Positions 42,469-48,001 of a stretch of DNA of 64,000 bases are shown in pieces (the first letter of the stretch is position 1; each line of letters starts with the position of its first letter). The stretch comes from Escherichia coli (GTDB lineage Bacteria > Pseudomonadota > Gammaproteobacteria > Enterobacterales > Enterobacteriaceae). Location: the NCBI RefSeq assembly GCF_024298765.1, contig NZ_CP101210.1. One strand, given 5' to 3'. The notes under the pieces were generated by a model. That model made no database searches and was not told the origin of the DNA. It saw nothing but the letters and a program-made list of their open reading frames with translations. A program made the translations under genes and the position numbers.

Positions 42469-42654
42469 ATGTCACCCTGTGAAAATGACACCCCTATAAA
42501 CTGGAAACGAAACCTGATCGTCGCCTGGCTAGGCTGTTTTCTTACCGGTGCCGCCTTCAGCCTGGTAATGCCCTTCTTACCCCTCTACGTTGAGCAGCTT
42601 GGCGTTACCGGCCACTCCGCCCTGAATATGTGGTCCGGTATTGTCTTCAGTATA
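42469..42654 (+). pseudogene. mdtG: mdtG 5' fragment (codons 1-62), truncated by the insertion
   Basis: [62 protein letters not shown], then out-of-context MGP-stop; the rest of the MFS protein resumes at ~46958. Confidence 0.85.
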
Positions 42655-42689
42655 ATGGGTCCCTAAACACATCATTTTAGGTATTGAAT

Positions 42690-44219
42690 ATGAGACGGGC
42701 AATCAGCTACATCAGATTTTCAAGTGAACGACAACTAAAAGGGGACTCTGTACGCAGACAATCTAAGCTGGTCACTGACTGGCTTGATAAGAACCCTGAG
42801 TTTTACTTGGATTCATCCTTGAGCTTTAAAGATTTGGGGAAAAGTGCTTTTAGTGGTAAGCACTTGAAAGGTGGCTTAGGTGACTTTTTAACCGCTATCG
42901 AGAAAGGGCTTGTTAAAGCTGGTGATACACTACTAATCGAGAGTTTAGACCGTCTCTCACGTCAGGATATTGATATTGCTTCTGAGCTATTACGTCGTAT
43001 CTTAAGGGCTGGTGTAGATATAGTCACACTGAGCGATGGTGAACATTACACACGAGAAAGTTTAAAAGACCCGTTATCCCTGATTAAAAGCATTCTGATA
43101 ATGCAGCGGGCGCATGAGGAAAGTCTGAGGAAGTCTGAGCGTGTCCAAGCTGCATGGAACCGTAAAAAAGAACTCATCTCCGAAGGTATCAAGGTATCTA
43201 GGCGTTGTCCTGCATGGTTAAGGCTGAATGATGACCGTCGAACATTCACTATCATCCCCGATAAAGTGGAAGTTGTTAAACGAGCATTTGACCTGAGATT
43301 ACAGGGTTTAAGCTTTTGGGCTATCACCAGAACTTTAAACGATGAAGGCCACTTGTCATTGAATCAATACACACCTAAACAAAAGGGATGGTCTGATACT
43401 GCTGTAAAGAAACTACTCAGAAATCGTGCTGTGATTGGATGTTTCACACCTGCTGGACGTGAAGAAGTTCAGGGTTACTACCCCGCAATAATCAGTGAGT
43501 CACTATTCTATCGAGTACAGCAACTGAACACAGGGCAATATGGTAGGGCTTCTGTATCAAGTAATCCGCTATCAGTCAACTTGTTCAGGGGTATCATCAA
43601 ATGTTCTGAGTGTGGGGCTACTATTGTTCTTGGTGGATATGCCTTAAAACGTTTTGGGATGTACAGATGCCCTAATCGTTCAGCTAACAGGTGTAGTGCA
43701 AAGGCTATCAGTCGTAAGCAAACGGATACAACTATCCTTTACATGCTCGCATTATGCGACCGTTTTGAAACTGAAAATACTGACACTATTGATAGCCTTA
43801 AATTACAGCGTGAAGATTTGCAGCGTAAAATCTCAAAAATGGCAGAACTCGCTATTGAACTCGATGACATGACAATTATCACAGAGAAATTACGTGATAT
43901 GAAGAATGCGCTATCAAAACTCAATCATGATATCGAAGAGGAAACAAAGCGGATAAAGGCCATCACAACTGGAAGCCTCAAAGATATTGACAGGACAACA
44001 AAGGAAGGGATGATAGAGACACAGCTACTTATCAAGGGCGTACTCAAAGAAATAGTTATAGATGCCGCTAAACGTCGCTGTAAAGTGACTTTTCACAACG
44101 GTAAGGTAATTGACCTACCTATAACAGAAAACCCCTCAGAGGACGTTACAGAGGCCATACAGTCGCTTTCTGAAGTCACTGAGAGGGGTTTAATAGATGT
44201 TGATGTAGTAGCGATTTAG
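42690..44219 (+). CDS. large serine recombinase (integrase)
   Basis: 509 aa from ATG 42690 (track begins 6 nt earlier at TTG): N-terminal resolvase domain with catalytic YIRFSSERQ, recombinase domain, Cys-rich zinc ribbon CSECG...CPNRSANRC, C-terminal coiled coil. Confidence 0.88.
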   Translation: MRRAISYIRFSSERQLKGDSVRRQSKLVTDWLDKNPEFYLDSSLSFKDLGKSAFSGKHLKGGLGDFLTAIEKGLVKAGDTLLIESLDRLSRQDIDIASELLRRILRAGVDIVTLSDGEHYTRESLKDPLSLIKSILIMQRAHEESLRKSERVQAAWNRKKELISEGIKVSRRCPAWLRLNDDRRTFTIIPDKVEVVKRAFDLRLQGLSFWAITRTLNDEGHLSLNQYTPKQKGWSDTAVKKLLRNRAVIGCFTPAGREEVQGYYPAIISESLFYRVQQLNTGQYGRASVSSNPLSVNLFRGIIKCSECGATIVLGGYALKRFGMYRCPNRSANRCSAKAISRKQTDTTILYMLALCDRFETENTDTIDSLKLQREDLQRKISKMAELAIELDDMTIITEKLRDMKNALSKLNHDIEEETKRIKAITTGSLKDIDRTTKEGMIETQLLIKGVLKEIVIDAAKRRCKVTFHNGKVIDLPITENPSEDVTEAIQSLSEVTERGLIDVDVVAI

Positions 44220-45380
44220 TATCTCTTATTAGGATTCACTGAGTACTTTTTAAGCTTTGAAGCTACCCGACCAGCGTTACTGTTAGCATTGGTGAGGTTG
44301 GTTTTTTCAGCTTCTTCACAAAAAAGCTTCAGAGGTCTTCTTAACCATCCGCTAAGCAGGAGAGAGGGTGGTACATGAGAAAGAACCCTCACTTCTAAAA
44401 AGATTTTTTAGCTATTTTGCTTAAAACCATATCAAAAGATACATTTTATTGATTCAGGTCAAAGACAAAAGCATTGACAAAATGGTAAAATTGTTCACAT
44501 GACCTTACTTAACAGACTTTTTAAGAGCTTTTGAGAAGCTTGTTGAACAGACACTCTTTCTGGAGTGTTGTCTTTTACTTAAGAGGTTTGTTTAGATAAC
44601 TCTCAAGGCATCTCTTAAGAATCACTGTTAAGGTGATACTCTCCCTTCGGGTTATATCGTATCTCTTCTCCCGTTAGACAGTTTTTCCTAGCAACTTCAT
44701 AGTTATCTGTCAAGTGCCTTTGAAGATTCCATCAAGACCTCTGAATCTGACCTGATATAGATGCTGTGAAGGCATATTCTCTAGGTCTGTGTAGCTTACT
44801 TAGTGGGAAGAGAGGGATATAGTGACCATAGGGGAACCCCTCCTGTTAAAAAGACTACTTAGAAGTCTGAGACTTTAGTAAAATCTGTGAATATAGCTTC
44901 TCAGACGCTCTGTAACGCATTCTAAGCGATTTTACCACCTTATTTTAAGGTGGGTGGTACATCCCTATAGGTTACCCTAAAAATGGGGTTAAAACTCGCT
45001 ACAGAGCTTTCTATGAGGCTTGGTAGAGTTGCATAAATTTTACACAACACTTATTCAGCTTCTAAATTTTTTTATAAAAAATCGTAGTAACCCCTCTACA
45101 TTCCCCTTCACCGATAATCTTCAAAAATATCTATCACAGGTCTATACCTGCTAAGTACCCGTCACTACGCCTAAGTGGTCCCCTTTGCAAAATTTTAAAA
45201 TATCTATTGACTTTTTATGTGAACTGTTATAAAGACCGCTCCATCTCTTAGGCATACCGTTATAGCATACTAAAAAGGTATAGCTAACCCCCTGTAAAAA
45301 CCATACCGATTAGCCTTGTAAAACACTTTATCGGTACATTATACTCAACTCATCAAATGAGTAAGGCAAATGAGTATATT

Positions 45381-45926
45381 ATGGCTAACATTGGTTATAT
45401 CCGAGTTTCATCAATCCAGCAGATTACAGACCGTCAACTTGAAGGGGTCGTACTGGATAAGATATTTACTGATAAAGCATCTGGGAAGAATACAGACCGT
45501 CCACAACTAAAGGCTATGCTCGATTATGTTCGTGAAGGTGATGTTATCCATGTACACGACTTGTCACGTTTAGGGCGCTCTACCGTGGATGTATTAACGC
45601 TGGTGGATAAACTTTCACAGAAAGGTATCAAGGTTCACTTTCACAAAGAAGGTCTGATAACTGGTGACGATAACCCCACGTCTAAGATGATTCTCACAAT
45701 CTTTTCAGCAGTGGCTGAAGCTGAACGTAAAATGATGCTTGAGCGTCAACGAGAAGGCTATGAAGCTGCTAAAGCTGCTGGTCGTGTAGTTGGAAGGGGT
45801 AACGGTAAAGCGGTTGACAGAGAAGGTATTAAAGCTGCTCTTGCTGCTGGTGGTTCAATCGCTAAAGTAGCCGCTCAATTCAACGTTGCCAAGTCAACTG
45901 TACAGCGTATTAAAGCTGAAGATTAA
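45381..45926 (+). CDS. small serine recombinase, resolvase/invertase family
   Basis: ~181 aa from MANIGYIRVSS (catalytic Ser), IFTDKASG, LSRLGRS, SAVAEAERK, C-terminal HTH; the track ORF starts 8 codons earlier at 45357. Confidence 0.85.
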   Translation: MANIGYIRVSSIQQITDRQLEGVVLDKIFTDKASGKNTDRPQLKAMLDYVREGDVIHVHDLSRLGRSTVDVLTLVDKLSQKGIKVHFHKEGLITGDDNPTSKMILTIFSAVAEAERKMMLERQREGYEAAKAAGRVVGRGNGKAVDREGIKAALAAGGSIAKVAAQFNVAKSTVQRIKAED

Positions 45927-45939
45927 GTCAGGAAATACA

Positions 45940-46623
45940 TTAGATTTTTCTTCCAAATAAACTTGGGAGATTCTTACGGTTTCTTGCTTGCATCATTATT
46001 TCTGGGCTAACAAGTTTTTTTAATTCGCTTCTGTACTCATCAATAGAACACTCATCCGCAACAAGTTTTGAAATCAGGTCTTCAATAGACATAACATCTT
46101 GTTGCAGGAAATCAAGTTCACGAGACAAGTGCTTTTTTTGATTCTCTAACTTTCCTATCTCAGCATTTAAGTTATCTACATCTGTCGCCAATTTCTCTGC
46201 CTGAGATTTCAAATTACTTGTATCTTCTTTTTCTCTTTCGATAAGGTTTTTTTGTTTCTCAATCTTCAACTTTGACGTCAGTCTAGCTGACTCTTCAAGA
46301 TTTTCAGCTTCTACTTTTTGTCTTGCTCGCCATGCGGTTGCCTTGATTTGAAGTAGTGTTACAAGGTTGCTGAAGTAAGGGAAAAAGGTCGCCAAAATGA
46401 ACCCTAGCCCTACGGGATAGCATAATGTTTTTAGATAGAAGTCTTCCGTCGATGTGATTTGTTGAATACGAGTAACAACCGAAGCCTCACTAAGACACAT
46501 GATAGCAATGCTTTTCCAGTTAAATCCCACCCATGACAAAATGATGTAGCCCCATAAAGGGTTAGCTACTCGTTCCTTCAACGCCTGCTTAACTGATTCC
46601 GTGATACTTTCTTCACTACTCAC
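45940..46623 (-). CDS. hypothetical membrane-anchored coiled-coil protein (227 aa)
   Basis: Two N-terminal hydrophobic helices (PLWGYIILSWVGFNW..., VGLGFILATFFPYFSNLVTLL), then ~120 aa of charged heptad-like sequence; no family recognised. Confidence 0.65.
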   Translation of the reverse strand: MSSEESITESVKQALKERVANPLWGYIILSWVGFNWKSIAIMCLSEASVVTRIQQITSTEDFYLKTLCYPVGLGFILATFFPYFSNLVTLLQIKATAWRARQKVEAENLEESARLTSKLKIEKQKNLIEREKEDTSNLKSQAEKLATDVDNLNAEIGKLENQKKHLSRELDFLQQDVMSIEDLISKLVADECSIDEYRSELKKLVSPEIMMQARNRKNLPSLFGRKI

Positions 46624-46957
46624 AATTACTGCTCCATAGAAAACTCTGGTTTGAGAAATTTTAATGCGAATCCAATCAGTTAGATAGACCTGTAAATAGC
46701 AATTTTATAGAAGTCGAGAGAGGGATGACTAACACCCTGCATAGTTTCCTGAAAAGAGACTTCGCATATTATCTATATATTTCAATAAGTTATGCTAAAA
46801 AGGAACTATACCAATACTGCATAGATTCTGCGTAAAACTGCTTGGATACTTGGAAATCCACCATTAAATTGCATAGTCATTCACCTGATAAAGCCTGTTA
46901 TTAACAGGTGATAGGATTCGGATGTTCTCATAGTGTATTTAGGGAATTAATATCAGC

Positions 46958-48001
46958 ATTACATTTTTATTTTCGGCCATCGCCTCACCGTTTTGGGGTG
47001 GACTCGCCGACCGTAAAGGCCGAAAACTCATGCTATTACGCTCTGCCCTCGGCATGGGCATCGTGATGGTGTTGATGGGACTGGCACAAAATATCTGGCA
47101 GTTTTTGATCCTGCGGGCGCTTCTTGGGTTACTTGGCGGATTTGTCCCCAACGCTAATGCTCTTATCGCCACACAAGTACCGCGTAATAAAAGCGGCTGG
47201 GCGCTGGGTACGCTCTCCACAGGCGGCGTTAGTGGTGCGTTGCTCGGCCCAATGGCTGGCGGCCTGCTCGCCGATAGCTACGGCTTACGTCCGGTATTCT
47301 TTATTACCGCCAGTGTGCTCATACTCTGCTTTTTCGTCACCCTGTTCTGCATCAGAGAAAAATTCCAGCCGGTCAGCAAAAAAGAGATGCTGCACATGCG
47401 GGAAGTGGTGACATCACTTAAAAACCCGAAACTGGTACTCAGCCTGTTTGTCACCACGTTAATCATCCAGGTGGCGACAGGCTCAATTGCCCCCATTCTG
47501 ACGCTGTATGTCCGCGAACTGGCGGGTAACGTCAGTAACGTCGCCTTTATCAGTGGCATGATCGCCTCGGTGCCAGGCGTGGCGGCTCTGCTAAGCGCAC
47601 CACGACTCGGCAAACTTGGCGATCGAATCGGACCCGAAAAGATCCTGATTACAGCGCTGATCTTTTCTGTACTGCTGTTGATCCCAATGTCTTACGTTCA
47701 GACGCCATTGCAACTTGGGATTTTACGTTTTTTGCTCGGTGCCGCCGATGGTGCACTACTCCCCGCCGTACAGACACTGTTGGTTTACAACTCGAGCAAC
47801 CAGATCGCCGGGCGTATCTTCAGCTATAACCAATCGTTTCGTGATATTGGCAACGTTACCGGACCATTGATGGGAGCAGCGATTTCAGCGAACTACGGTT
47901 TCAGAGCGGTATTTCTCGTCACCGCTGGCGTCGTGTTATTCAACGCAGTCTATTCATGGAACAGTCTACGTCGTCGTCGAATACCCCAGGTATCGAACTG
48001 A
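46958..48001 (+). pseudogene. mdtG: mdtG 3' fragment (codons ~63-408), separated from its start
   Basis: Frame resumes ...[35 protein letters not shown]... to the native stop; the track shows only the internal-Met ORF 47030-48001. Confidence 0.85.

Follow-up and report, generated by a model that had tools for sequence, protein, structure and literature searches.

A 4.3-kb element in mdtG of Escherichia coli, its probable integration by the large serine recombinase Ec07 and its putative crossover dinucleotide

Introduction

The stretch of Escherichia coli chromosome analysed here (64,000 nucleotides; hereafter the window, whose positions are used throughout) carries the gene order trhO-lpxL-mdtG-msyB-yceK-opgH, in which mdtG is interrupted after codon 61 by an insert of 4,306 bp, measured from AG to AG. 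GC is low in the insert (35-44%, compared with 50-56% in the flanks). The reading frame of the 5' fragment of mdtG runs into the insert and reaches a stop at 42664-42666, and with MdtG cut to 65 aa the efflux pump is predicted to be knocked out by the insertion in this strain. The locus raises the question of what the insert is, how it came to lie in mdtG and at which bases it was joined. A preliminary description, made from the letters of the window, had proposed a site-specific crossover within an att core by the adjacent large serine recombinase (LSR). That proposal agrees with a published attP/attB pair, that of the integrase Ec07, and the insert is very probably an integrative element that was put in mdtG by its own LSR, Ec07, in a conservative recombination of attP with attB.

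Results

The recombinase and its identity with Ec07

The LSR gene begins at the left end of the insert, its ATG lying 36 bp past the point of divergence, close to the ~35 bp given in the preliminary description. The predicted protein contains Resolvase (PF00239, residues 4-160, E = 7e-16), Recombinase (PF07508, residues 190-280, E = 2e-17) and Zn_ribbon_recom (PF13408, residues 298-350, E = 2e-6) domains of Pfam, a set that marks it as a large serine recombinase. Residues 360-440 gave weak coiled-coil-type matches, residues 244-460 match the solved C-terminal domain of the A118 integrase (E = 3e-4), and a search of PHROGs placed the protein in the integrase family phrog_95 (E = 4e-80). The putative catalytic serine is residue 11, in the motif YIRFSS; by inspection, Y-I-R-F-S11 lines up with V-I-R-L-S10 of Bxb1. 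No close relative of the LSR was found in isolated phages, the best match being of the YbcK type (37%). A promoter scan of the right end and attL found no + strand promoter, and an int promoter at the right end, acting across attP, is unsupported.

Over all 399 residues printed in PMC10083194, the LSR is identical to Ec07 (Escherichia coli, HAJ7447475.1), an entry of Supplementary file 4 of Durrant et al. (Nat Biotechnol 2022/2023; PMC10083194), the title of which announces a list of experimentally characterized LSRs. The predicted attP printed there for Ec07 corresponds exactly to window positions 46903-46956 joined to 42651-42700, and the predicted attB differs from the mdtG flanks at 1 of 104 positions (PMC10083194). 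According to the same paper, 15 of 17 first-batch candidates were functional and 2 of 17 inactive when assayed for plasmid recombination in HEK293FT cells, a figure for the batch and not for Ec07 itself (PMC10083194). In a 2025 review, Ec07 appears in a list of integrases that have been used in human cells. The integrase and its attP/attB are already catalogued as Ec07, and the att finding of the preliminary description is correct, not new. As to its text, the Ec07 entry lists sites of 104 bp with an 'attachment-site centre' and names neither the dinucleotide, nor the host element, nor the target gene (PMC10083194); the assignment of AG, the deleted structure of the element and its spread between lineages are the additions made here.

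Table 1 Features of the interrupted mdtG locus in the window
Feature	Position	Strand	Basis or remark
mdtG 5' fragment, codons 1-61 minus last base	42469..42650	+	In register with K-12 mdtG to 42650
attL: attB left half, AG, attP right half (TATAATGGGTCCCTAAACAC...)	42625..42675	+	K-12 alignment, junction comparison; Ec07 attP right half = 42651-42700
Putative crossover dinucleotide AG in attL	42649..42650	+	PK6 junctions share only AG; dyad centre
Distal attP right-arm motif TCCCTAAACAC	42660..42670	+	Inverted partner of 46933-46945; dyad analysis
Large serine recombinase, 509 aa (Ec07)	42690..44219	+	PF00239, PF07508, PF13408; phrog_95; Ec07 identity
Remnant, 3' end of 'baseplate' (phrog_3721) gene; left edge of ~7-8 kb internal deletion	44216..44315	-	Collinear with A1/L002 to 44315
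Conserved non-coding block, ~840 bp; corresponds to Dam-invertase intergenic region of ~11 kb elements	44394..45234	.	Comparison
Small serine recombinase, DNA-invertase type (Resolvase + HTH_7), variable cassette slot	45357..45926	+	RefSeq start 45381
227-aa ORF, hydrophobic N-terminal stretches and coiled coil	45940..46623	-	Weak coiled-coil matches; PHROGs of unknown function
Conserved right-end region, common to family members at any integration site	46679..46928	.	Right-end alignment
Three ACCTG(T/A)-type motifs ~11 bp apart, weak hairpin possible	46882..46910	.	Right-end alignment, DNA fold
attR: attP left half (..GTGTATTTAGGGAATTAATATC), AG, attB right half	46931..46981	+	Ec07 attP left half = 46903-46956
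Putative crossover dinucleotide AG in attR	46955..46956	+	PK6 junctions, dyad centre
mdtG 3' fragment, last base of codon 61 to stop, start lost	46957..48001	+	K-12 alignment

The insert as a deleted member of an element family

The strain A1 and others carry versions of ~11-12 kb at the same mdtG site. Their gene order begins with the LSR, the 'baseplate' gene (phrog_3721) and a 727-aa tape-measure protein, continues with ORFs of 71 aa and 236 aa without family matches and several small ORFs, and ends with a replication-initiator-like HTH protein, a Dam methylase and a small serine recombinase. The same order was found at yecE and between tonB and yciI. The nearest phage relatives of the tape-measure protein are virulent myoviruses of the Felix O1-like group (~30% over the full length), and the contents of the family (LSR, tape-measure protein, phrog_3721, Rep-like protein, Dam, invertase) include no capsid or terminase gene. 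The integrase at the tonB site (locus L008) is Ec03 of Durrant et al.; the attB of Ec04 is the start of wrbA, and the attB of Kp03 includes the tonB core in reverse complement. The integrases Ec03, Ec06, Kp03 and Ec04, as listed in PMC10083194, belong to elements that share this overall architecture or the conserved right-end motif, but they are just 33-38% identical to Ec07, and their att sites and cores differ.

Judged by this comparison, the insert in the window is an internally deleted derivative of the ~11-12 kb family. The non-coding block at 44394-45234 contains no ORF longer than 45 aa and no convincing iterons, and is a candidate regulatory, ori or pac region; an Rfam scan of the insert returned only a sub-threshold chance match. 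PADLOC and NCBIfam searches with the 227-aa ORF and the small ORFs of the family gave only coiled-coil noise. The 4.3-kb element has no recognisable replication, packaging or RDF gene, and the derivative is probably non-autonomous. A tyrosine recombinase, as would mark a tyrosine-integrase island, is absent from the insert.

Movement of the 4.3-kb form between lineages

In a comparison covering 28.9 kb, the window was set against strains 1428 and NT1F25. Divergence is 12-17 SNPs/kb (~1.4%) in the flanks of the insert and 0.2-3 SNPs/kb in the element: 13 differences were found in 1428 and 1 in NT1F25, where the divergence of the flanks would predict ~61-63 (P = 3e-14 and 2e-25, respectively). 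The flank differences closest to the crossover in NT1F25 lie at distances of 39 bp (42612) and 91 bp (47047), with no shoulder of low divergence beside the element. A near-identical element in divergent flanks, with the switch falling within 39 and 91 bp, argues for site-specific spread of the 4.3-kb form, and the simplest reading of these sequences is that the already-deleted element was acquired independently and site-specifically by divergent lineages. A sharp SNP boundary produced by repeated homologous replacement of the flanks, ending each time at the heterology, would be less parsimonious. Independent acquisition implies a circular intermediate bearing attP and some transfer vehicle; neither an excised circle nor a revertant to the empty site was seen.

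The same data weigh on an alternative in which a large prophage integrated a single time in an ancestor, shrank by decay to 4.3 kb and was passed on vertically as an immobile relic, with its att sites left as fossils. The phage-type genes of the larger versions (tape measure, 'baseplate'), the IS insertions and truncations in several copies and the ~7-8 kb missing from the window copy are all what such decay would leave. Against it stand the near-identity of the 4.3-kb form in the face of its diverged immediate flanks, and the gene order of the ~11-kb versions, which persists in copies that share only 70-75% DNA identity, at four sites. Moreover, once IS are subtracted, none of the versions found exceeds ~12 kb. 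IMG/VR contigs of 50 kb, considered as a larger intact form, proved to consist of the element at yecE and, in tandem with it, a lambdoid prophage with a tyrosine integrase. An immobile relic is thus regarded as unlikely, and integration by Ec07, followed by movement of the deleted form, is the reading retained here.

The junctions and the crossover dinucleotide

Both flanks were aligned base by base to the mdtG of K-12, which served as the empty site. The left flank matches K-12 through 42650 (...GGTATTGTCTTCAG) and diverges thereafter (TATAATGGGTCCC...), and the right flank is K-12 mdtG from 46953 onward (TCAGCATTACATTTTT...). The perfect overlap of both ends is TCAG, at 42647-42650 and 46953-46956, and the alignment to an uninterrupted mdtG thus yields a core shared by both junctions, as the preliminary description had supposed. 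The strings that it quoted were found in place (TTCAGTAT at 42646-42653, and ATCAGCAT at 46952-46959, followed by TACATTTTTATTTTCGG). The change of codon 62 from ATT to ATA, with which it marked the left junction, is real against K-12, but it is the second difference only; the insert already begins in codon 61 with the T at 42651, which turns AGC into AGT.

Recurrence at mdtG was searched for with 200-bp queries spanning the junctions in 5,426 complete E. coli genomes. The attL junction was present in 22 of them, with elements 75-100% identical, and a matching attR was found in the same 22 genomes; the match is full-length in 16, and in 6 it takes in no more than the last ~30 bp of the element. 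Carrier strains include CT265, NT1F25 and 1428. The remaining genomes gave alignments that stop at, or start from, the core. The junction-to-junction distance in the carriers ranges from 4.3 to ~15 kb.

Junction sequences from five mdtG loci were then compared. At attL, Ec07-like copies read GTCTTCAG up to the junction and TATAATGGG(T/C)TCCCTAAACAC beyond it; at attR they read GTGTATTTAGGGAA(TT/CA)AATATCAG up to the junction and CATTACA beyond it. Strain PK6 carries a sister element at exactly the same mdtG position, with an integrase 76% identical. Its attR has ...GCATATATGAG followed by CATTACA (...TATGAG, then CATT), compared with GTCTTCAG followed by TATAATACC at attL (...CTTCAG, then TATA), and the only bases common to the two are AG. 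Before AG, the attB-derived base is C and the attP-derived base is G; after AG, the attP-derived base is T and the attB-derived base is C. Since the PK6 junctions share only AG, the exchange would fall within AG.

Independent support came from the symmetry of attP, which was reconstructed by joining the left half of attR to the right half of attL. The reconstructed site has 16 of 24 dyad-symmetric positions about AG (the next-best centre reaches 10-11), and a value of 16/24 at any centre was attained in only 69 of 20,000 shuffles. The symmetry at AG is 16/24 in four copies and 15/24 in PK6, and attB has little dyad symmetry (6/24). The distal motif of the right arm is kept in sister copies as TTCCTAAACAC or TTCCTAAATAC. 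At the other sites, the dyad centres also fall inside the cores (yecE: core TGATTTT, centre TT; tonB: core TCAAGGGTCATTG, centre GT). A short attP with an imperfect dyad and few bases in common with attB, the pattern by which serine-integrase att sites are recognized, was found here, the core being 4 bp, and 2 bp in PK6. The PK6 junctions and the dyad centre, taken together, point to AG as the crossover dinucleotide, by comparative inference. The central dinucleotide of serine integrases is non-palindromic, as AG is here, and sets the orientation of integration.

The preliminary description had instead taken the att core to be an imperfect 7-bp repeat, TCAG(T/C)AT, with the exchange anywhere within it, and had suggested that the nearby inverted repeat may be an accessory arm bound by the recombinase. 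This version is now very improbable in both of its parts. TCAGTAT and TCAGCAT do stand at the two ends, but perfect identity extends over 4 bp (TCAG), PK6 narrows it to AG, and the dyad is centred on AG. The T at 42651 is attP-derived and the C at 46957 attB-derived, as expected for an exchange to their left; the (T/C)AT that follows TCAG is a resemblance of half-sites, attP versus attB, only.

The inverted repeat is likewise present in the window, but it differs in build from the nested structure that had been described. All its strings were found (CACCTG at 46882-46887, CCTGTTA at 46894-46900, T at 46901, TAACAGG at 46902-46908 and CAGGTG at 46905-46910), and as CAGGTG overlaps the inner right arm, they form two alternative pairings rather than one nested set. 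Folded as DNA, 46882-46910 gave -6.4 kcal/mol (z = -2.2), and a terminator scan found no terminator there. In an alignment of the right ends of seven elements, the repeat lies within a block of ~250 bp that is kept at mdtG, yecE and tonB, although the carriers have integrases only 33-69% identical and differing att sites. The third copy of the ACCTG motif is direct, not inverted, in the tonB element, and the hairpin is therefore not conserved.

In addition, the repeat lies 45-74 bp from the crossover, outside the att site of ~50 bp. Relative to sister copies, the motif in the window copy is set apart from the attP half-site by 11 additional bp, and in the attP listed for Ec04 the same motif is just ~26-40 bp from the core (PMC10083194). 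The published Ec07 attP (104 bp) begins at 46903, inside the repeat (PMC10083194). These observations provide evidence against any need for an upstream inverted repeat: the position outside the ~50-bp site, the variable spacing and the conservation across different integrases and att sites leave a role of 46882-46910 as an integrase arm not supported. The ACCTG motifs may possibly be a binding site for a family-wide factor. LSRs are not known to use arm-type sites.

Insertion of a transposon type, in which TCAG would be a 4-bp target-site duplication, has next to no probability: the single TCAG of the empty site recurs at either end of the insert, which formally resembles such a duplication, but the insert has neither a DDE transposase nor terminal inverted repeats of the transposon type, divergent elements occupy the identical position with the insertion point fixed in 22 genomes, the 'duplication' of PK6 is imperfect (TCAG versus TGAG) as a true one would not be, and the attP printed in PMC10083194 already contains the core; the junctions thus lie at a shared core, as the preliminary description had held.

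Discussion

Site-specific integration by Ec07 would proceed as follows. The LSR would bind an attP of ~50 bp through the arms of its imperfect dyad, GTGTATTTAGGGA and TCCCTAAACAC, and also, within codons ~53-70 of mdtG, an attB of lower symmetry. Cleavage of both sites at the central, non-palindromic AG would be staggered by 2 nt, and the subunits would rotate and the ends religate to give attL (42649-50) and attR (46955-56). TCAG at both ends would then be the stretch in which attP and attB chance to be identical around AG, and the circular attP junction would read ...AATTAATATCAGTATAATGGG.... The 2-nt staggered cleavage, the rotation of subunits, the unidirectionality and the need for an RDF in excision are inferred here from the mechanism established for LSRs.

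Ec07 resembles the integrases of Bxb1, phiC31 and A118/TP901-1 in its order of Resolvase, Recombinase and Zn ribbon domains and in its coiled-coil region. Its sites also resemble those of the classical phage serine integrases, which have short att sites, a dyad in attP and the integrase gene adjoining attP; the putative crossover dinucleotide AG is, like their central dinucleotide, not palindromic. The relationship to Bxb1 is nevertheless distant (24% over part of the protein), and the classical systems are phages, whereas the carrier of Ec07 is an element of 4-12 kb without capsid and terminase genes. The att finding in itself is of small import, because the Ec07 sites are already a candidate for genome engineering; the assignment of AG can be tested and would be useful for orthogonal dinucleotide variants of Ec07.

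That a stripped-down element of 4.3 kb appears to be still moving prompts two questions: which agent packages or transfers it, and where its excision factor comes from. One tentative answer, which we hold to be possible but doubtful, is that Ec07 is the integrase of an undescribed, satellite-like family of ~11-12 kb in Enterobacteriaceae, integrated at mdtG, yecE, tonB and wrbA, and that the 4.3-kb copy is a non-autonomous mini-derivative, carried along by a full-length element or helper phage as it spreads between lineages. If so, the 4.3-kb copy would retain only the integrase, the att site and the conserved non-coding blocks. No description of the element family was found in the literature on mdtG/yecE serine recombinases, on Felixounavirus satellites and on tape-measure/serine-integrase satellites; within the literature searched, both the carrier family and the mobility of the mini-derivative appear to be undescribed.

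The PLE of Vibrio cholerae offers a parallel. In the published descriptions drawn on here, it is a small element that integrates by an LSR, has a replication initiator and no capsid genes, and receives its excision factor from the helper phage ICP1. Such dependence on outside functions would be a plausible analogy for the 4.3-kb form, which is without an RDF. There is, however, no sequence relationship between the two; PLE integrates in repeat sequences and not in mdtG, and any satellite behaviour in the E. coli family is putative.

The slot of the small serine recombinase holds unrelated genes, in either orientation, among the copies of the family. Self-inversion had been considered for a flipped small recombinase and was rejected, since the slot contains unrelated cassettes and not an inverted segment.

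Spread of the mini-element

Between positions 42651 and 46952 of the window, the 4.3-kb deleted element shows 1 difference from its counterpart in strain NT1F25 and 13 from that in strain 1428 (comparison loci L023 and L024), while the flanks of the same strains diverge from the window by 12–17 SNPs per kb. In the comparison of the window with L023/L024, the switch from low to high divergence lies at most 39 and 91 bp from the crossover (distances for NT1F25). The combination of a near-identical element, divergent flanks and so close a switch therefore indicates horizontal, site-specific spread of the mini-element. A perfect TATAAT forms the first six element bases past the crossover (window 42651–42656), and the integrase ATG follows 34 bp downstream. 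By eye, neither the attL nor the attP configuration provides a good –35 sequence for it; int may be transcribed from this point or by read-through out of mdtG.

Architecture of the full-length element

The architecture of the ~11–12 kb elements is kept at mdtG, yecE and tonB-yciI, and at wrbA via the attB of the published recombinase Ec04. The genes encode a large serine recombinase (LSR), a phrog_3721 'baseplate', a tape-measure protein of ~727 aa, small ORFs, a Rep-like HTH protein, Dam and a small serine recombinase. The architecture lacks capsid and terminase genes, and no published description of the family was found in the literature searched. The counterparts most similar to the element's tape-measure protein come from Felix O1-like virulent myoviruses (~30% across the full length), which gives a hint that a helper phage may support a satellite-like way of life.

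Coordinates of element features (L002, strain A1 copy at mdtG; L008, tonB-site copy; L004–L007 and L025, other element loci)
Feature	Location	Remark
~11–12 kb element copies	L002 20291–31916; L007 19959–31594; L008 3098–14334; L025	
Tape-measure protein gene	L002 22765–24945	(–) strand
Variable slot	window 45357–46623; L002 30873–31442; L004 31152–31703	between conserved non-coding block and conserved right end
~840-bp non-coding block	window 44394–45234	all ORFs ≤45 aa
~160-bp module	window 44863–45025	
Inverted ~160-bp module (examples in 11-kb elements)	L002 26872–26999; L007 26538–26665	
IS-affected element copies	NZ_CP029164; NZ_CP032066/CP095801; NZ_CM180514; L004; L005; L006	

Cargo slot and non-coding block

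The slot behaves as a variable cargo cassette: the small serine recombinases it holds are unrelated and may point either way, and in the window it also contains an ORF for a 227-aa coiled-coil protein. The ~840-bp block is 80–89% conserved across hundreds of E. coli genomes, in most of which it carries no annotation; it has no Rfam match and no clear iterons. The mini-element has kept this block, which makes it a candidate cis-acting region. The VL46 copy is interrupted by an AP2-domain gene. The ~160-bp module occurs a second time, inverted, upstream of a 107-aa ORF in 11-kb elements, and may represent a shared regulatory module.

Tandem prophage and IS insertions

At yecE (L013 8205–9948; IMG/VR contig 2703718810_000005), the LSR element has a lambdoid prophage, whose integrase is of the tyrosine type, as its tandem neighbour. 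The two use this one gene, and viral-contig callers fuse them into a single 50-kb 'virus'. Many element copies carry IS insertions (ISEc52, IS100, ISEc12, IS911 and IS2), and in RM9088 the integrase itself is truncated by an IS3-family insertion.
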